Assembly: GCA_964510585.1 (NCBI GenBank)
Contig: CAZECW010000005.1
Coordinates: 1-10,936 of the forward strand
Length of the DNA: 10,936 nt
DNA from: an uncultured archaeon
GTDB lineage: Archaea > Asgardarchaeota > Jordiarchaeia > Jordiarchaeales > Jordiarchaeaceae
Reading direction: 5' to 3'
Under the pieces are notes generated by a model. It ran no database searches. It was not told the origin of the DNA and saw only the letters and a program-made list of their open reading frames with translations. The first letter of the stretch is position 1, and every line of letters begins with the position of its first letter. The translations under genes were made by a program, and so were the position numbers. This document shows, piece after piece, positions 1,905 through 10,643 of this stretch.

Positions 1905-3521
1905 TCAACGATTCCCCCTCTTTAATGTGAATATTAATAGGTAGCGGTGTATGATCTCTAAGTTTTTGTTGCCTGAGGGCGTTTTGGCAGAGTTTTCTTT
2001 GTTATCAGGAGTAACTATAACAATTTCTTTTATTTTAAACTCATTAAAAGTTGACATCTCCTCCATTATGCTAACACCAGTAGGATGCACTAATCCATTA
2101 ATTCGAACATCCTTTGTATCTATGACTAAAAAACCCTCAGGAGCAAGAAAACTCCTTGCCTCCTCAACGATTTTTTTAACAGCTCCTAAATATGCTTTAA
2201 TATTCTCTTGTCCAAGTTTTTTAGGATGAGACAAATACACAAGAGATGGAGCAAAATTTGTTTTAACATTAAATTTTTCATTAGCGCCATTGAAATTAAT
2301 CTCCAAATATTGGCTGTCTGAAGCTAGAAATCTTCCAATCAAATTACGTTTTATTTCTTCATCCATTTCCTCTTGTGGCAAAATCCACACCGTAGTGGTC
2401 TCAAGATTTTCTCTTCTGAGCCCACTTATTTTTCTAACAACGGCTTCGTAATGAAAAACATCACATTCGGAGGAATAATTTATGCCTGCATTTTCCTGTT
2501 CTGGTTTCTCAAAAATAGGTAAATACTCGTGTGCCAAGAGTAAGAAGTTATACTTAATACTTCTATCGTACCAAAAGCCGGTCGTTTTACAATTATGTTG
2601 ACGTTTAATAACCAACTCCTTCAACACAAACCCCGCATCCAGAAAAACCCTAATAGTTCGAAAACCGATTGGAACCACCTGTTTCTGCTTCCTTGTATCC
2701 CCTATGAGAATTGTACATTTCCCCCCCGGCTTAAGCACCCTATAACTTTCACGAGCAACCTTACCTATCTCCACAAGGAAATCTTCAATCTTAAACTTTG
2801 ACAAGTCCCCCTCAACCTTGGAGCTATAATTTATTATCCCCGCATAGGGAGGATGCGCACATATCAAATCAACGCTTCCATCCGGAATACCTGACAAATC
2901 CCGCGCATCACCAACAGCCACCTCAGGTTCATACACCCGAAAACTTTCAAGAAGCGGCTTTGAATCAAAATTGAGATTTTCCCTCGTTAAACCAATAGCA
3001 GCCGGATTTATATCCCTAGCAATACATCTCCTACCCAAAAGTTTAGCTTCAACCGCTGTTGTTCCACCACCCACAAAATAATCAAGCACTACTTCCCCGG
3101 GCTTGCTATACTTAAGTATCACATTTCTCGGAATATAAGGAGACCAATTCCCCCTGTATCTCCCATCATGAGTCGCCCAATCTCCCCTCTGCTTAAAACT
3201 CCAAACCGTCGTAGTTTCCTCCCTAAACTTTCTCGGAGCCCAATACTTTACCTTCTTAGGCCTTTTCAGAACCGAAATATTAATACCATATGCTTCAGTT
3301 ATGATTTCTTGTAATTGCTTGAAGGTAATTCCGTATATTGCCCCTAAATCTGGATCAGGCATCCCGCTTTCCTTTGCCTTAAGCACAGCGTTTCTAAACG
3401 TTCCCTCCCCATGAACGTTCCTTATATGCTCACCGAGATTCTCCTCTACCACCACATCGCAAACAGGACACTTTCCATTATGATATAACTGGGTAGCTGT
3501 ATTTCTCATTTCACTAACCAA
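1905..3521 (-). CDS. N4-C/N6-A amino-methyltransferase (N6_N4_Mtase-like, HPPY type) with N-terminal C2H2 finger + HTH and a degenerate C-terminal MTase duplicate (538 aa)
   Basis: Motif I VLDYFVGGGTT (aa 145-155), motif II RDIN, GDAR, motif IV DLICAHPPY (aa 218-226) and RVLKPGG. N-terminal C18-x2-C21...H32-x4-H37. Aa 373-533 repeat the MTase scaffold without its catalytic motifs. The TTG start has GAAGGAG 6 nt upstream (3528-3534). Confidence 0.9.
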   Translation of the reverse strand: MVSEMRNTATQLYHNGKCPVCDVVVEENLGEHIRNVHGEGTFRNAVLKAKESGMPDPDLGAIYGITFKQLQEIITEAYGINISVLKRPKKVKYWAPRKFREETTTVWSFKQRGDWATHDGRYRGNWSPYIPRNVILKYSKPGEVVLDYFVGGGTTAVEAKLLGRRCIARDINPAAIGLTRENLNFDSKPLLESFRVYEPEVAVGDARDLSGIPDGSVDLICAHPPYAGIINYSSKVEGDLSKFKIEDFLVEIGKVARESYRVLKPGGKCTILIGDTRKQKQVVPIGFRTIRVFLDAGFVLKELVIKRQHNCKTTGFWYDRSIKYNFLLLAHEYLPIFEKPEQENAGINYSSECDVFHYEAVVRKISGLRRENLETTTVWILPQEEMDEEIKRNLIGRFLASDSQYLEINFNGANEKFNVKTNFAPSLVYLSHPKKLGQENIKAYLGAVKKIVEEARSFLAPEGFLVIDTKDVRINGLVHPTGVSIMEEMSTFNEFKIKEIVIVTPDNKENSAKTPSGNKNLEIIHRYLLIFTLKRGNR

Positions 3522-4137: not shown

Positions 4138-5061
4138 ATGCAAAAAACCACAAATTACCGGCAAATGGAGGAAATCACAGAAGAAGACTACAAAAAATTT
4201 GTTAGCCAGAAAAAAGAAATCATCCAAAATGATGGCGACAAAAAATACAAAATCAGAATCGGTGAAAAAAGAACCATAAATGAGCTCCAACCCAAAAATT
4301 TTAACCCAGAGACAACCACAGTTTGGTCATTCCCAAACAGAGGAAACTGGGCAACACACAAAGGAGATTTCAGAGGAAACTTCGCCCCCCAAATACCCCG
4401 AAACCTAATTATAAAATACTCCAAAATCGGCGAAACAGTCCTAGACCAAATGTGCGGCTCAGGCACCACCCTAGTAGAGTGTAAACTGCTGGGACGGAAT
4501 GGAATAGGTGTGGATATCAACTATGAACACATTATTCTTACCAGAGACAGACTATCATTCAACTTGGATTCTCAAAATACAGATAATAAAACCTTGCAGA
4601 AAACATTTGTGGGAGACGCAAGAAACCTAAACCTAATACAAAATGAATCAATAGACCTAATAGTAACTCATCCTCCATACGCTAATATTATACCCTATTC
4701 TAAGGACGAGGTTAATGGCGACCTTTCAAAAATAGGAAATGTTAGACAATATCTCGAAGAAATGAAAGTTGTTGCCACAGAATGCTTCAGAGTTTTAAAG
4801 CCCAATAGGTATTGTTGCATAATGGTCGGTGATACAAGAAAGAAAGGATACTATGTTCCGATAGCCTTTGAAGTCATGCAAGTTTTTCTAAACACCGGTT
4901 TTCTGCTCAAAGAGGACGTAATAAAACATCAATGGCATTGCAAGAGTACAAAGTACTGGCTTGAAAAATCAATTCAACACAATTTTTTACTCATAATGCA
5001 CGAACACATATTTGTTTTTAGTAAGCCAAAAAGAAAAGAAAATTTGGGTTTTTTCTGCTAA
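4138..5061 (+). CDS. Second HPPY-type N4-C/N6-A amino-methyltransferase, paralogous to 1905-3521 (true start possibly ATG 4165, MEEITEEDY)
   Basis: ETTTVWSFPNRGNWATH...RGNFAPQIPRNLI, motif I VLDQMCGSGTT, VDIN, GDARNL, motif IV DLIVTHPPY (aa 173-181), RVLKP and HEHIFVF. It aligns end to end with aa 101-340 of the 538-aa MTase. Confidence 0.92.
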   Translation: MQKTTNYRQMEEITEEDYKKFVSQKKEIIQNDGDKKYKIRIGEKRTINELQPKNFNPETTTVWSFPNRGNWATHKGDFRGNFAPQIPRNLIIKYSKIGETVLDQMCGSGTTLVECKLLGRNGIGVDINYEHIILTRDRLSFNLDSQNTDNKTLQKTFVGDARNLNLIQNESIDLIVTHPPYANIIPYSKDEVNGDLSKIGNVRQYLEEMKVVATECFRVLKPNRYCCIMVGDTRKKGYYVPIAFEVMQVFLNTGFLLKEDVIKHQWHCKSTKYWLEKSIQHNFLLIMHEHIFVFSKPKRKENLGFFC

Positions 5062-5421: not shown

Positions 5422-7140
5422 TCAGATTGTTGTTATTTGTAGTTTTCTTTTTGTTGTTTGTATTTGTGTGTCTGTGCTGGTTTCGATTATTGCTCTTACT
5501 TTGTTTTCTCTTATTTGTGTGATGTTTAGGTTTGTTCTTATTTTTCCGCTACTTATTTTTATGGTTGTTGCGTTTGCTATTTCTGTTGAACATTTTTTGG
5601 GTAGGCGGAGTAGCATTACTGATTTTAGTGTGGGGTGCCATGCCTTAACCATTATTTGGTTTTGTTGTTCTGTTGTTTGTAGTATGTACATGGTTTGGGC
5701 GTAGGGTTTGGGGCATTTCGGGATTGGAGTGAAACTTTCTATTTTTAGGGCTTTGTCCAGCGGAGCTTTTGTTTGGTCTTGAAGTTCTTCTTCTGGTAAT
5801 ATTTCTCCCAGTTTTTTCATTATTGTTTCAGTTACTTCTTTGTCTCGCAGTTTACAGTAGTTTTGGAGGCAGTGTGCGGCTTCTGTTTTTGCGGCTAGGG
5901 GTGCTTCCAGCTCTAGTATGGCTTCAAATATTTTGGGTGGATGTGTTGTGTTTCCGAGTGTGTGGAGGTCCTGGGCTGCGTTTAATAAGTATTCTGGATC
6001 TGCGTCTGGGGGTAGGGGTTGTCCTGTTGCTGCCAGTATTAGGTTTTGTATTTGTTTTATTTGGGGTGTGGTTACTGTTGTTTTTTGTAGTATTTGGTTT
6101 AGGGTGTTTTGGGCTTTTTCTATTTCTTGGTTGGCTAGTTGAATTATTGCCATTAGTGCTAGGGTGTTTTCCAGGTTTTCTGGGGTGTGTGCTGGGTATA
6201 GTCCGAGGGCGTTTGTTATGTTTTTTTGTGCTTCTTGGGATTTTCCTTGCTCTAGGTTTTTGGCTGCGGTGCGGATTTGGGCTTGGAACATTTTTTGTTG
6301 GAATATTATTTGTAGTGGATGGTGGGTTTCGGGTGTTAGTTGTTTTGTTTTTTGTGTTAGTTGCCATGCGATTTCTGTGGTTAGGTTTTCCAGTTCGCTG
6401 GGTTCCTCTGTTTGGCTGAGTTTTTTCAGTAGGTTTGGGAGTGGTTGTAGTATTGTGAGTTCTTTTTCTTGGTTTTTGTCGAGTTCTTCGTCGTTCATTA
6501 TTTTTTGTAAGGCTTGGTTTATTCGGGGTGGTAGGGTGGGTATTTGTGCTGTTTTTTGTACTATTTGGCGAGTTGTTTCCAGTATTTTGTGGATTATGGG
6601 CGAGATGGAGCGTCCGGCTCTCAGTCTGTATTGGAGGAAGTAGCTTGCGGTTTCTGTTGCTGTGAGTAGGAGTTGGTTTCTCTGTTTTTGGGTTGGTGCC
6701 TTTGAGGCTACTGTGCTTAGGAGGTTGAAGGGTTTAACTATGTGTAGTTGGGGGCTTTTCAGAATGTTTGTGACTGTTTCTTCGATGCCCTGGTCGTCTG
6801 TTACGATGTGGGTTTCCTCTTGTTCAGAAAACTTTTTGGCGAGGTATAAGACTTCTATGTCTGTTTCACTTTTTTCAGCGGATATGTAGCCTCTTTTTGT
6901 GGCTTCCCTTTTTATGTTTTTAAATTCTGGCTCGCTTATGTTTACTTGTTCCGCTTTGTCTATGAACAATTTCACTTTTTCGATGGGCAGTCTGCCTTGA
7001 TCAACTTCGTGTAGCACTGATTGTGTGGTGTAGATTCCTGTGTTTTCCTGTTTGAGTATGTTTCTTATTTCTTGGAGTTGGTCTATGTTGTTAGTGTTTT
7101 CCAGGGCTATGAAGAAGTTTGCGTCGAATACTAGGTTCAA
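5422..7140 (-). CDS. PIN-domain nuclease with long helical (TPR-like) middle region and beta-rich (OB-like) C-terminal domain (572 aa)
   Basis: PIN acidic residues are intact: VFD6ANFF, SVLHE45, SETD94IEVL and IVTD115D116. Amphipathic helical repeats follow (e.g. LEQGKSQEAQKNITNALGL, QLANQEIEKAQNTLNQI), then an alternating hydrophobic beta-strand C-terminus. The TTG start is 9 nt after the upstream TGA with a GAGGGA SD. The TPR and OB assignments are inference. Confidence 0.8.
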   Translation of the reverse strand: MNLVFDANFFIALENTNNIDQLQEIRNILKQENTGIYTTQSVLHEVDQGRLPIEKVKLFIDKAEQVNISEPEFKNIKREATKRGYISAEKSETDIEVLYLAKKFSEQEETHIVTDDQGIEETVTNILKSPQLHIVKPFNLLSTVASKAPTQKQRNQLLLTATETASYFLQYRLRAGRSISPIIHKILETTRQIVQKTAQIPTLPPRINQALQKIMNDEELDKNQEKELTILQPLPNLLKKLSQTEEPSELENLTTEIAWQLTQKTKQLTPETHHPLQIIFQQKMFQAQIRTAAKNLEQGKSQEAQKNITNALGLYPAHTPENLENTLALMAIIQLANQEIEKAQNTLNQILQKTTVTTPQIKQIQNLILAATGQPLPPDADPEYLLNAAQDLHTLGNTTHPPKIFEAILELEAPLAAKTEAAHCLQNYCKLRDKEVTETIMKKLGEILPEEELQDQTKAPLDKALKIESFTPIPKCPKPYAQTMYILQTTEQQNQIMVKAWHPTLKSVMLLRLPKKCSTEIANATTIKISSGKIRTNLNITQIRENKVRAIIETSTDTQIQTTKRKLQITTI

Positions 7141-7149
7141 AGCGTTCCC

Positions 7150-8997
7150 TCATTTGAGTGTTATTTTTTGGTTCCATTCCTGTTTTTCAAGTTCGGGTTC
7201 AAAGCTGGCTACAATTAGTTGGCGAACACCTGTGGATTCCAAGTAGTCTTTGAGGATGCTGTATATTATTTTCCTTCTTTGTGGGTCTAGATGGTAGGCT
7301 GGCTCATCTAGGAGGATGAAGTCTGGTTCCCCGATGGTGGAGGCCATGGCGAGTCTGACTGCTAGGAAGAGTTGTAGTTTTTCCGCTCCGCTTAGCTGGT
7401 AGGCGGATAGGCTTATTTCTGGGGATGCCAGTTGGGGTACAAATTCTTCGTCCCAATTCACGGACCAGATTCCCGGCTTGAAATTGGCCATTATTCCGGC
7501 GGCTTTTTGTTTTACTTGGACTAGTTTTTCTTCCCGCAGCCGCTTAACTGTTCTTTGTAGGGCCTCCAACATTGTAGTTATGACAAATTCTTGGTGGGCT
7601 AGGCTTCTTACTTCTTTTTCCAATGTGGCGGCGGATTTGGATGAGGCTTCCACCATGGCTTCCATAAGAATTATGTCCTTTCTTATTGCTTCTTTTTCAG
7701 CTTGTTTTTGTTCAATCTGTGACTTTATTTCCCTCAGTGTGGATTTGAGCTTGTCCTGATTTTTTGGCTGTTTTGCCGGGAACTGTTTGTCGAGGTTGGA
7801 TTTTTCCTCATTTAGTCTTCTGAGTTCTTCAAAAATTATCTCCATTTCTCTTCTCTTTGCCTGCAGGTCACTGAGGCTAATTTCTAGAGTTTTCCTTTTT
7901 TCCTCTGTTTTCTCGTATTCTTTCTCAGATTCCTGTAATTCTTTCTGGAGTTTTTGGAGGGTTTCTGAAAACTCACCGCGTATCCTTTTTATGTGTTCAG
8001 GGGTTAGCGGCTGGTTGCAAAGGGGGCATCTGTCTCCAGCTGTCTCCAATTTTTGCAGCTTCTCATTGCCATCCCTAATCCCACTTTTTAGAGCTGAAAT
8101 TTTGGAAAGCATTTCCTTCTCTTTACCCCTTTGTTCCTGGATTTCCTGCTCCGTCCTTCTAATCGCAGCTTCGAGCCTTTCTTTAGGTGCCTCTTCCCCC
8201 TTCAAACCAATAACAAGTTGGTCTAACCTATTTTTACTCCCCATCACTCTCTGTTCAATATCAGTAATTCTCTCTAGGATACTTGAAGCTTCCTGAACAG
8301 TGTTCTGCTGGGCTAATAATTCTTCAATTTTAGAGGTAACATTGCTTAATTTGTTTTCCAGGTCTTCCCTGCTTTTTTCCAAGTCCCGTTTTTCGGGAGA
8401 AGGCATCTTGGTTTCCTTAAGTTCCCTCCTTAAGCTTTTTAGTTCGCGGCTTTTTTCTTTAGAGAGACTGTTCACCGATTCTATGAGTGTTATGATTTTG
8501 TCCATTTGGAGCATTTGATCTATCTCGGATAGGACTTTACCGCTGGGACTCTGGAGAAATTCGTAGATGTCCCCCTCCTTCATATAAATGGTTCTCAAGA
8601 AGTATTGGGTTCCAAAACCTAAAATTTCACTTAGCCTTTTATTTACCTCCTCTGGTCCAGATGCTATCTCAGTGGGCTGCTCTCCATTCTTGGAGGAGTA
8701 AAGGTAGGCTCTCTCACTCACCTTTTTTTCTCCGGATATGTAGCGGCGTACAAGATACTCACAGCCATCCTTGGATACGAAGCTCAGTTCAATGCAGGCT
8801 TCGCCTGACTTAAACCTTCTAAAATTTAGTAGACTTTGCTTCTCGGATGGCTCTCCGTTGAGAGCGTAAAAGATGGCTTGCAAAATGCTGGTTTTACCTG
8901 AAGCGTTTGGGCCGTAAATGAGGTTTAAGCCTTCTTTAAACTCGAACACCCTCTCTTCATAGTTTTTCCAGTTCTGCAGGCGAACACTAGAAATCAT
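7150..8997 (-). CDS. Rad50/SbcC-like SMC-family ABC ATPase with Zn hook (about 615 aa; start ATG 8997 preferred to the track's 9012)
   Basis: N-terminal ISSVRLQNWKNY, Walker A GPNASGKT, coiled coils flanking a central CPLC hook (8017-8028), signature LSGAEK, Walker B FILLDEP and D-loop HLD. SD GAGGGGGG lies upstream of ATG 8997. Confidence 0.92.
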   Translation of the reverse strand: MISSVRLQNWKNYEERVFEFKEGLNLIYGPNASGKTSILQAIFYALNGEPSEKQSLLNFRRFKSGEACIELSFVSKDGCEYLVRRYISGEKKVSERAYLYSSKNGEQPTEIASGPEEVNKRLSEILGFGTQYFLRTIYMKEGDIYEFLQSPSGKVLSEIDQMLQMDKIITLIESVNSLSKEKSRELKSLRRELKETKMPSPEKRDLEKSREDLENKLSNVTSKIEELLAQQNTVQEASSILERITDIEQRVMGSKNRLDQLVIGLKGEEAPKERLEAAIRRTEQEIQEQRGKEKEMLSKISALKSGIRDGNEKLQKLETAGDRCPLCNQPLTPEHIKRIRGEFSETLQKLQKELQESEKEYEKTEEKRKTLEISLSDLQAKRREMEIIFEELRRLNEEKSNLDKQFPAKQPKNQDKLKSTLREIKSQIEQKQAEKEAIRKDIILMEAMVEASSKSAATLEKEVRSLAHQEFVITTMLEALQRTVKRLREEKLVQVKQKAAGIMANFKPGIWSVNWDEEFVPQLASPEISLSAYQLSGAEKLQLFLAVRLAMASTIGEPDFILLDEPAYHLDPQRRKIIYSILKDYLESTGVRQLIVASFEPELEKQEWNQKITLK

Positions 8998-9217
8998 CGG
9001 AACCCCCCTCAAATAGGCAATTTAACTCAGCCTCAACTTCAATGTTGGAGGATGAAAGATAATTCTTAACGAAATCTATAATTTTACACAGTTCTTCTTG
9101 GGAAAGACTATGTTCCTCTTGGAATTCGGATTTTTTGCCTCTCTTTGCCTGTTTCTCTGCAAGGATTGCTTTGAGTTCTTCCTCAAATATTGCTACAACT
9201 ACATGGATGGCGGACAT
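8987..9217 (-). CDS. Small acidic helical protein (76 aa), first gene of the SMC-PIN operon (the track starts it at GTG 9226)
   Basis: MSAIHVVVAIFEEELKAILAEKQ...LSQEELCKIIDFVKNYL... is amphipathic and helical. Its TAG (8987-8989) overlaps the SMC start by 11 nt, and AGGTG lies upstream of ATG 9217. Confidence 0.65.
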   Translation of the reverse strand: MSAIHVVVAIFEEELKAILAEKQAKRGKKSEFQEEHSLSQEELCKIIDFVKNYLSSSNIEVEAELNCLFEGGSDDF

Positions 9218-9270
9218 GTCCCCCACACCTACTTCATAATCCTAAAGAAAAATTTACTTTCAACACCACT

Positions 9271-9288
9271 GTTTATACATAATTTTCA
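9271..9288 (-). promoter_or_regulatory. Possible BRE/TATA promoter for the small ORF-SMC-PIN operon
   Basis: The minus strand reads TGAAAATTATGTATAAAC, about 55 nt upstream of ATG 9217. The match is weak and the region is AT-rich. Confidence 0.3.
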
Positions 9289-9462
9289 CAAATCAAGGTA
9301 ATAAAATTTTGGAATAAAAACAAACAACACGACCACAGCAGAACAGCACCTGAAAGAGTGGCGAATAAGGGTAAACCAGAAACACTATAAACCGAGCACG
9401 TCCAAAAATTCTTTTGATTTTCACACAATAATTCTTTTGCTATGATTAAAGCATCTAGGCTA

Positions 9463-9558: not shown

Positions 9559-9653
9559 AAATATCTTAAAAAAATCAAACAAATACTTCAATTTTTTGGA
9601 CGTGCTCTCCTTAAAGGAAAGATAAATAAACAAAATTAAATAAAAAATTACTA

Positions 9654-10643
9654 GTGGTTAAAGTGATAAAAAGTTTGGAGATTAGGAATTTTAAATCAAT
9701 AAAGTTTCTGGATATAAATTGTAGGAGGATAAATATTTTTATAGGTGAGCCCAATACCGGGAAATCAAATATTTTGGAGAGCTTGGGAATTTTTTCCTAC
9801 GGGGCTTATGGGTCTTACGCGCTTAATGGTATTAGAGATTTCGTAAGGTTAGAGAGAATGAGTAACTTATTTTATGATGAAAATTTAGATGAAAAAATAG
9901 AAATTAAATGTGATGGTAAAAAATTTGAGATGGAATTTAAAAATGGTAAATTCCAAGGAGTATTCCGCGAGGGGGATAAAGAATTAGGGAAATTTGATTA
10001 CGATTATTCGGGAATGGGTTTTGTTCCTAATCTTAGTTCTGTTTCTTCGTTTAAATTTTATAGATTCACCATTTTAAAAAAATTCGAAATAAAAGATTCG
10101 GAATTTCTTTTACCACCCCTCGGAAGGAATCTATTATCAGTTCTTATGACTCACAAAGAGTTAAAATCTACTGTTAGCCAGATTTTTGAACCATTTGGTT
10201 TAAGATTAGTTTTCAAGCCTCAAGAGGAGAAAATAGAGGTATTAAAGGAACAGGAAGATGTTTTTATCGCCTATCCATACTCCTTAGCTTCTGACACGCT
10301 TCAAAGAATAATTTTTTATCTTTTAGCAGTCAATTCTAATAAAGATTCTATCCTAGTATTTGAAGAACCAGAAGCACACGCTTTTCCCTACCACACAAAG
10401 TTTCTTGCCGAAAAAATTGCCTTGGACAAAAACAATAATCAATACTTTATCTCCACACACAACCCCTATTTTCTCCTATCAATCATAGAGAAATCCTACA
10501 AAGAAGATGTAGGGATCTTCGTAACATATTTTAAAGAGTATCAAACGAAAGTCAAGCTATTAAGCGAAGAAGACATCGAAGAAATAATGAACCTAGAGAT
10601 AGACGTCTTCTTCAACGTTGAAAGATTTTTGAATAAAGAATGA
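9654..10643 (+). CDS. AAA_15/AAA_21-type ABC-superfamily ATPase (OLD/PARIS-AriA-like class); start possibly GTG 9663 (MIKSLEIRNFKS)
   Basis: IKSLEIRNFKS N-terminus, Walker A GEPNTGKS (aa 31-38), degenerate signature SLASDTLQR, Walker B LVFEEPEAH and H-loop ISTHNP. Confidence 0.9.
   Translation: MVKVIKSLEIRNFKSIKFLDINCRRINIFIGEPNTGKSNILESLGIFSYGAYGSYALNGIRDFVRLERMSNLFYDENLDEKIEIKCDGKKFEMEFKNGKFQGVFREGDKELGKFDYDYSGMGFVPNLSSVSSFKFYRFTILKKFEIKDSEFLLPPLGRNLLSVLMTHKELKSTVSQIFEPFGLRLVFKPQEEKIEVLKEQEDVFIAYPYSLASDTLQRIIFYLLAVNSNKDSILVFEEPEAHAFPYHTKFLAEKIALDKNNNQYFISTHNPYFLLSIIEKSYKEDVGIFVTYFKEYQTKVKLLSEEDIEEIMNLEIDVFFNVERFLNKE

Follow-up and report, generated by a model that had tools for sequence, protein, structure and literature searches.

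What does a Rad50-like ATPase do when its neighbour is a PIN-domain nuclease and no Mre11 is encoded beside it? The question is raised by three genes in the window that we analysed, which is the entire contig C5 (10,936 bp) of a 3.78-Mb Asgard metagenome-assembled genome; this assembly contains no 16S rRNA gene, and the closest protein relatives of the window are labelled Jordarchaeaceae or Freyarchaeum. The genes encode a small protein, a zinc-hook ATPase and a nuclease in which a PIN domain is followed by a TPR-like solenoid and a beta domain, and we refer to them together as the triad. We tentatively favour a reading in which the triad is a DNA-sensing switch that drives the PIN nuclease, with defence as the leading candidate for its role. 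It would then be an independently evolved counterpart of Lamassu and RloC and a member of neither, and of a kind, a Rad50/SMC-like ATPase paired with a nuclease, that is already known.

The three minus-strand genes are as tightly coupled as a reading of this stretch made from the sequence alone had described. The stop codon of the small gene (8989-8987) and the start codon of the ATPase gene (8997-8995) fall within an 11-nt overlap, a gap of 9 nt separates the ATPase stop (7150) from the PIN start (7140), and Shine-Dalgarno-like purine-rich runs (GGTGTGGGGG, GAGGGGGG and GAGGGA) lie 5' of all three starts. The AT-rich leader ahead of the small gene holds a TATAAA-like box about 55 nt 5' of its ATG, and an Rfam scan of the window gave no match. 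The three genes are a genuine operon and, as described below, a conserved one. That sequence-only reading had also remarked that no Mre11/SbcD phosphoesterase accompanies the ATPase, and a Pfam scan of the window indeed finds no Metallophos gene.

The ATPase is a derivative of Rad50. It had been called Rad50/SbcC-like, and it has Pfam matches to AAA_23 (2.6e-20), SMC_N (2.3e-15) and Rad50_zn_hook (1.2e-8; 35 bits, above the cut-off of 24.3), intact Walker A and Walker B (LLDE) motifs, the signature motif LSGAEK and a CPLC hook. Its nearest solved structures by sequence are the archaeal Rad50 heads of M. jannaschii and P. furiosus (5e-25), and neither LmuB/DdmC nor E. coli SbcC is among its PDB matches at E <= 0.001. 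The best NCBIfam Rad50 score, 139.6 bits against a cut-off of 700, is a weak test for Asgard proteins, as the genome's true Rad50 also falls below it (182.6 bits). In a 55-sequence maximum-likelihood tree, built by a quick method and sampling one LmuB subtype (PDLC03859), 15 triad ATPases form a single clade among archaeal Rad50s (Shimodaira-Hasegawa-like approximate likelihood ratio test, SH-aLRT, 98), whereas 14 LmuB sequences form a separate clade on a long branch (SH-aLRT 100). In the neighbouring Rad50 clade, one member adjoins Mre11, and MCM, FtsZ or ribosomal genes are next to two more.

The triad clade differs from its relatives at the catalytic loops. Every Rad50/SbcC-type row in our alignment (26/26) has Gln at the Q-loop, DE at Walker B and His at the H-loop; every LmuB row (14/14) has DQ at Walker B and His at the H-loop, the LmuB Q-loop region being unaligned; and every triad ATPase (15/15) has Glu at the Q-loop, DE or DD at Walker B and Phe, Tyr or Leu at the H-loop. 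With Glu and Phe at these two positions, the window ATPase does not keep the complete ABC catalytic set of Q-loop Gln, Walker B Glu and H-loop His. ABC ATPases in general need the H-loop His for hydrolysis, and losing it cripples them. The triad clade has, judging from the alignment, probably reached a hydrolysis-poor state by a route other than that of LmuB. There, the Walker B Glu-to-Gln change has been read as indicating slow or absent hydrolysis (PMC10586767). Since both the Q-loop Gln and the H-loop His are lost, a switch or sensor is favoured over a repair motor.

The genome has other genes for Rad50's usual work. One contig (C118) carries nurA, a HerA-type DUF87 ATPase, Mre11 (NF041029, 5e-31) and a 676-aa Rad50 in a row, and on another (C191:1-3512, locus L003) an SbcD-like gene comes before one for a zinc-hook protein of 847 aa that resembles SbcC/Rad50 (sbcc 1.2e-58). 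Because this canonical cluster and this SbcCD-like pair are both present, the window ATPase is the third Rad50 paralogue of the genome, and the suspicion that it might be the only Rad50, branching with housekeeping proteins, can be laid aside, the triad ATPases forming a clade of their own. The genome's Metallophos matches all lie outside the window and include one on C118 beside the true rad50.

The PIN domain is only faintly visible to Pfam, with a sub-threshold match to PIN_6 (E 0.002, under the gathering cut-off), as is the solenoid (TPR_19, 5.9e-5, under its cut-off). A Foldseek search of the PDB with the whole protein gave generic TPR matches only, and so the PIN domain was modelled alone. 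The model matches HARP/PRORP (protein-only RNase P; 3.5e-4), NOB1, VapC, SMG6 and Utp24, with a Foldseek probability of 1.00 for HARP, NOB1 and VapC, and a PIN family profile compared with the PDB points to HARP (0.004) and Nob1 (0.02). The domain belongs with the VapC-like PIN group, near PIN_5/PIN_6, having both the fold and the conserved acidic residues; D6, D94 and D116 are invariant across 14 diverse family members, which bears out, together with the high confidence of the domain model (Table 1), the earlier description of a PIN nuclease with intact acidic residues. On these model and profile comparisons, the closest relatives of the PIN domain appear to be PIN enzymes that cleave RNA (HARP RNase P, Nob1, VapC) and not FEN-type DNA nucleases. 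The top match in the AlphaFold database (AFDB) is a 585-aa 'PIN domain-containing protein' that aligns end to end (3.7e-16). AFDB matches over the C-terminal beta domain include TTC5-OB, cold-shock and S1 proteins, and we tentatively regard this predicted domain as OB-like.

The small protein has no Pfam, PADLOC or NCBIfam match, and its Atlas model is of low confidence (predicted local distance difference test, pLDDT, 0.52). Homologues are nonetheless encoded directly upstream of the ATPase at all 11 loci of a DNA-level search (profile E 8e-35 to 1.4e-7) and at 12 of the 16 ATPase loci in a sample of 400 Asgard genomes. The genes at the 11 loci encode 65-89 aa, with the open reading frame (ORF) of L055 called as 140 aa. 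Two identities for this protein, as a detached Mre11 tail or as LmuC, were dropped when hhalign gave no sequence signal for either: neither the Mre11 C-terminus nor a verified LmuC resembled it in these comparisons, and PADLOC gave no LmuC match. At 76 aa it is also much shorter than LmuC, which has about 160 aa.

The triad keeps together wherever it is found. Its ATPase clade occurs in 16 of the 400 Asgard genomes, in 8 of 85 genera, and in 15 of these 16 genomes a PIN-family gene detectable by profile is adjacent; in the sixteenth (G357) an 86-aa ORF, a 658-aa ATPase and a divergent 672-aa protein that keeps a D...ITDDVGI motif occupy the same places. The doubt as to whether the PIN gene is conserved beside the ATPase is thereby answered, as it is adjacent wherever the clade occurs. 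The DNA-level search, run with one genome per species, gave 11 full-length archaeal relatives of the ATPase from Jordarchaeia/Freyarchaeota, Heimdallarchaeota (two of them complete genomes) and 'Promethearchaeati', and the order small gene, ATPase, PIN is common to all 11 loci. The ATPase and PIN trees have subclades in common and the genes have therefore been co-inherited. Two of the six genomes of the triad's own genus lack it, and the triad is specific to Asgard archaea with a sporadic distribution. One match labelled 'bacterium' (L057) has a split ATPase and no partner genes.

Within Jordarchaeia, the triad has the character of a mobile cassette and lies in variable regions of a defence type, with many toxin-antitoxin and methyltransferase genes. 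Homology spans 3.9 kb (9336..5430) and the flanks differ in each genome: blastn homology begins at 9336 in L014, 9320 in L018 and 9228 in L022, with unrelated sequence beyond. No terminal repeats were found at the cassette ends. Identity among these cassettes is 56-88% for the SMC-type ATPase and 71-95% for the PIN protein, and the flanks carry HicAB with methyltransferases, HepT/MNT, or FAD oxidases; N6/N4 methyltransferases and an AAA_15 ATPase are also among the cassette's neighbours. The ATPase and the small protein have diverged more quickly than the PIN protein within Jordarchaeia, and out of step with it, which we count in favour of the switch. L018/L048 share 58% identity with the window in the ATPase and 53% in the small protein, but 84% in the PIN protein, and take discordant positions in the trees, which suggests either that the two halves of the cassette have recombined or that the sensor half evolves faster. 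At four independent Heimdallarchaeota or 'Promethearchaeati' loci, a helicase-nuclease of about 900 aa that joins UvrD to PD-(D/E)XK/Cas4 is encoded directly upstream on the same strand, making a four-gene operon possible.

One locus of a different make-up, L020 (6793-8701; Asgardarchaeia), has a small gene (27% identity), an ATPase of 566 aa that stops short of Walker B and no PIN gene; a gap of 198 nt follows the shortened ATPase and then come proteins with hydrophobic-looking N-termini. It is apparently a decaying copy. As this C-terminally truncated ATPase without Walker B is found at the only locus with a different downstream gene, we rejected the idea of a swappable effector, the Lamassu hallmark: the partner is always of the PIN-TPR family.

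Table 1. Coordinates of the triad, its domains and motifs, and associated features (window coordinates unless a locus is named; AF2, AlphaFold2)
Feature	Coordinates	Strand	Details
Small-protein gene	9217..8987	-	ATG start, 76 aa
ATPase gene	8997..7150	-	ATG start, 615 aa
PIN-TPR gene	7140..5422	-	TTG start, 572 aa
Non-coding leader / putative promoter region	9218..9336	-	blastn: carried along with the cassette
Small subunit, 76 aa, acidic, of no known family	8987..9217	-	directly upstream of ATPase
Walker A GPNASGKTS, aa 29-37	8887..8913	-	alignment; G29, G34, K35 invariant
Q-loop position, Glu141 replacing Rad50 Gln	8575..8577	-	E in 15/15 triad ATPases
Zinc hook CPLC, aa 324-327	8017..8028	-	C324, P325, C327 invariant; Rad50_zn_hook match
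H-loop position, Phe599 replacing switch His	7201..7203	-	F/Y/L in 15/15 triad ATPases
PIN-TPR-beta-domain nuclease, 572 aa	5422..7140	-	always directly downstream of ATPase; AF2 model pLDDT 73.5
PIN domain, aa 1-146, with D6, E45, D94, D116	6703..7140	-	domain model pLDDT 93.8
TPR-like alpha-solenoid, aa 151-454	5779..6690	-	all-helical in AF2 model; Foldseek: TPR proteins
C-terminal beta domain, aa 484-563, possibly OB-like	5452..5691	-	AF2 strands, pLDDT about 50-76
UvrD-PD-(D/E)XK gene	L038/L050 1225-3921 (L038 coordinates); L051 2927-5659; L052 2037-4739; L049 4-924	same strand as triad	

The three genes thus appear to form one functional, Asgard-specific module, whose products may assemble into a physical complex. 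In the mechanism that we propose, the Rad50 paralogue, which keeps Walker A and B, the signature and the zinc hook without the Q-loop Gln and H-loop His, would dimerise through its hook and bind ATP together with DNA ends or structures, and it is more likely to be a slowly hydrolysing switch than a motor for repair. In concert with the small subunit, whose gene is upstream, it would gate the PIN-TPR nuclease encoded downstream. Because the PIN domain has enzymes that cleave RNA as its closest relatives, the likely output is cleavage of RNA, which would arrest an infected or DNA-damaged cell. The patchy distribution, the mobility, the defence-type neighbours, the retained canonical repair genes, the altered catalytic loops and the RNase-like PIN domain are the basis on which we lean, with some hesitation, towards this switch. 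A more pointed version, in which Asgard archaea reinvented the principle of Lamassu and RloC, with a hydrolysis-disabled Rad50 paralogue and a tiny adaptor sensing viral or broken DNA ends and unleashing a PIN RNase, we consider rather doubtful, and we hold just as loosely its corollary that this RNase was recruited from an otherwise conserved, stand-alone family of Asgard nucleases.

Several observations weigh against a defensive switch, and most of them concern the PIN-TPR family outside the operon. A family profile finds it in 225 of the 400 Asgard genomes, usually in single copy, and it is near-universal in some Asgard families (127/135 genomes of f9, 19/22 of f21 and 14/14 of f23). Most copies stand alone in conserved housekeeping neighbourhoods, with an ABC transporter, an RNA methyltransferase, MobB, IF-2B and HMG-CoA reductase as neighbours, and such wide conservation is unusual for a toxic or suicide effector. 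Most triad genomes have no family member besides the triad copy, and the complete genome of Freyarchaeum deiterrae has an intact 581-aa orthologue without the ATPase or the small gene. The effector is never exchanged across triad loci and, at the Heimdall-group loci, the neighbours other than UvrD-PD-(D/E)XK are not defence genes and no defence island is obvious. The stand-alone proteins, of about 600-680 aa, have the same build of PIN domain, TPR region and C-terminal beta domain, their three Asp residues are invariant, and they may represent a conserved Asgard RNA-processing nuclease. If so, PIN-TPR could be an Asgard-wide enzyme of RNA maturation or decay which the ATPase and small protein merely modulate or localise, with no link to defence or DNA ends; the single-copy, syntenic occurrence of the family in several Asgard families, the closeness of its PIN domain to the processing enzymes Nob1 and HARP, and the triad copy being usually alone in its genome all speak for this. 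We nevertheless find it quite improbable. The family is wholly lacking in one same-genus genome (99% complete) and in 5/5 sampled sister-family genomes, and it is therefore dispensable there; moreover, the ATPase derives from DNA-binding Rad50, and in Jordarchaeia the cassette is mobile and has defence-type surroundings. The same ancestry, with its intact zinc hook, would suit an accessory machine for DNA end-processing or repair, in which the Rad50 paralogue tethers or recognises DNA ends, PIN-TPR replaces Mre11 as a structure-specific nuclease and UvrD-PD-(D/E)XK resects in some lineages. The helicase-nuclease gene at the four loci without defence neighbours fits this proposal, as does the broad conservation of the PIN family, which resembles that of a cellular enzyme; in where it lies and how long it is, the small protein is reminiscent of the tail with which Mre11/SbcD binds Rad50, and DNA flap nucleases are among the members of the PIN-like superfamily (PMC5499597). 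However, the nearest PIN relatives are RNases, the lost His and Gln run contrary to a hydrolysis-driven motor, the small protein does not detectably resemble the Mre11 C-terminus, and a rare and patchy module that moves among toxin-antitoxin and methyltransferase genes, in hosts that retain canonical Mre11-Rad50, is not what such a machine would lead one to expect; we judge this alternative, which the sequence-only reading had also offered, unlikely but still a serious rival.

It might also be asked whether the triad is a true, divergent Lamassu (LmuABC / ABC-3C) with a new PIN effector. The PADLOC LmuB model PDLC03859 matches the window ATPase over its full length (120 bits, 3.5e-35), the ATPase, with about 600 aa and one CxxC, resembles short or long LmuB (PMC12663957), the small gene directly precedes it as LmuC precedes LmuB, and the PIN protein joins an N-terminal effector domain to a long C-terminal extension as LmuA does. 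Yet the same model gives the genome's own Mre11-linked Rad50 114 bits and its C191 SbcC-like paralogue 125 bits, and it also matches the housekeeping Rad50 of control archaea, whereas genuine LmuB from verified LmuA-LmuC-LmuB operons of Pseudomonadota scores 340-460 bits (LmuA 2.5e-53, LmuC 2.4e-14 and LmuB 450 bits at one checked locus). Because the genome's own Rad50s score alike, the match is non-specific, and we rejected LmuB membership on this ground. The published LmuB definition of Walker B (hhhhD[Q/S/T/E] in the short form, hhhhDD in the long) admits the LLDE of the window and the DD of some triad ATPases, but these are equally typical of Rad50, and the LmuB sequences that we aligned had DQ and kept the H-loop His. 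The PIN protein and two relatives have no PADLOC LmuA match, hhalign against verified LmuA gives E 0.32, the gene order is C-B-A and not A-C-B, and, as noted, the one LmuB subtype sampled in the quick tree is a strongly supported clade apart, with no solved LmuB among the PDB matches. Membership of Lamassu is thus largely refuted and only a very slim chance is left to it. What stands of the sequence-only description 'Lamassu-like' is the likeness in logic; the family membership it might have implied does not hold. Among the other readings, the DNA-sensing switch ranks first, as our tentative choice, followed by the unlikely Mre11-free end-processing complex and then by the still less probable regulator of an RNA-processing enzyme. 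PIN-TPR is a lineage-wide nuclease coupled to a Rad50 paralogue in a minority of genomes, and not a swappable toxin.

Examples of stand-alone PIN-TPR genes are L036 (5575-7569), L041 and L045 in f9, L037, L040 and L044 in f21, and L042 in f23. Worldwide the family is small, with 198 clusters (50% identity) in a set of 1.84 billion representatives, and Atlas feature matches suggest that Thermoplasmatota have similar-looking proteins of about 625 aa. In Freyarchaeum deiterrae, homology to the orthologue begins exactly at the PIN-TPR start codon, and the gene adjoins a DISARM-like cluster and toxin-antitoxin genes. The last ~180 nt of this gene are repeated about 860 bp downstream (L011 10612-10788), the two 3' ends bracketing a 209-aa gene, and a third, degraded 3' fragment (49% identity, with stop codons) lies elsewhere (G039:C1:2611633-2611995). 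The 3' end of PIN-TPR may be a recombination or insertion site.

Around the triad, the window holds further genes of interest. A divergently oriented 329-aa AAA_15/AAA_21 ABC ATPase (9654-10643, plus strand) matches the PADLOC models for AriA (1e-18) and NsnB (2.9e-17) and has N-terminal matches of the GajA/OLD type; no nuclease partner was identified up to the contig end, and it may be a second defence ATPase. Between its gene and the triad, a 24-nt inverted repeat (9385-9408 / 9593-9616, 83% complementary) brackets a 184-nt intergenic segment in which Rfam finds nothing. On the other side lie two N6/N4 DNA methyltransferases (4138-5061, plus strand, and 1905-3521, minus strand; PADLOC MTase_II 1.9e-85 and 6.5e-96), for which no restriction enzyme is recognised, and a 450-aa ORF of no family (551-1903) adjoins the latter. 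In L014, methyltransferases homologous to these lie beside the cassette.

Sensing of foreign DNA by SMC/Rad50-like ATPases recurs in immunity, in Lamassu, Wadjet, RloC and human Rad50 and Smc5/6. The ATPase of the triad is an archaeal branch of Rad50 that arose separately, reached a probably hydrolysis-poor active site in its own way and has PIN-TPR as its fixed partner. A defensive triad would represent convergent exaptation of repair machinery in the lineage closest to eukaryotes. Should the triad instead be a complex for repair or RNA processing, it would define a Rad50 machine free of Mre11 and offer the first functional access to a PIN-TPR family that over half of the sampled Asgard genomes possess. 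Its proteins are three in number, small and separable, and its Q-loop and H-loop changes are specific to the clade, so that the triad is directly testable.

In keeping with the earlier remark that a named system of exactly this architecture is not known, we found no description of it in PADLOC, the Lamassu census and review or the PIN superfamily catalogue, and the main texts of two Asgard defence surveys mention no SMC-type system. Four groups of known systems nevertheless invite comparison. From Mre11-Rad50/SbcCD the ATPase is clearly derived, with zinc hook, Walker motifs and signature kept, but the triad has no Mre11/SbcD phosphoesterase, has lost the Q-loop Gln and H-loop His, and has a shorter coiled coil (615 aa in all, compared with 676-900). 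PARIS AriAB, Septu/retron PtuAB and Gabija GajAB likewise pair an ABC/SMC-family ATPase sensor with a nuclease, and Gabija, like the Heimdall loci, adds a UvrD helicase; these systems have no zinc hook, no small subunit and no PIN-TPR partner, and their PADLOC models give only generic N-terminal ATPase matches to the window protein. Retron-Eco7 PtuAB is reported to degrade host tRNA, and a virally encoded tRNA to neutralise PARIS. Lamassu (LmuABC, DdmABC or ABC-3C), which senses DNA ends, has been traced to bacterial SbcCD, and its reported archaeal occurrences are limited to seven genomes, with no Asgard genome among them (PMC12663957). Besides the small gene ahead of the ATPase and the effector with an N-terminal nuclease and long C-terminal extension, the triad shares with it an ABC ATPase of about 600 aa that has a coiled coil and descends from Rad50/SbcC, with a hook CxxC that LmuB often has, an altered active site suggestive of slow hydrolysis, and a sporadic distribution in variable regions. 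Unlike LmuB, with its Walker B change, the triad ATPase is altered at the Q-loop and H-loop and lies among archaeal Rad50s; the order at every triad locus examined differs from that of the reference Lamassu loci, and neither the small protein nor the effector is detectably similar to LmuC or LmuA. The docking C-terminal domain of LmuA is a bundle of 5-6 helices (PMC12663957), in contrast to the TPR solenoid and beta domain of the triad effector; PIN is absent from the reported Lamassu effectors, and these are exchanged whereas the PIN-TPR partner is fixed. RloC differs in being a single bacterial polypeptide with a C-terminal anticodon nuclease (ACNase) domain (PMC3458546), where the triad has three separate archaeal proteins and a PIN-TPR nuclease, and no anticodon-nuclease or HEPN family is among the Pfam matches of the window proteins; what it has in common with the triad ATPase is the ABC fold. 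In RloC, an RNase is under the control of a DNA-responsive ATPase that is Rad50-like and has a coiled coil and a zinc hook, and mutations in the hook turn the nuclease on (PMC3458546), which makes RloC the best functional precedent for a Rad50-like DNA sensor whose output is RNA cleavage.

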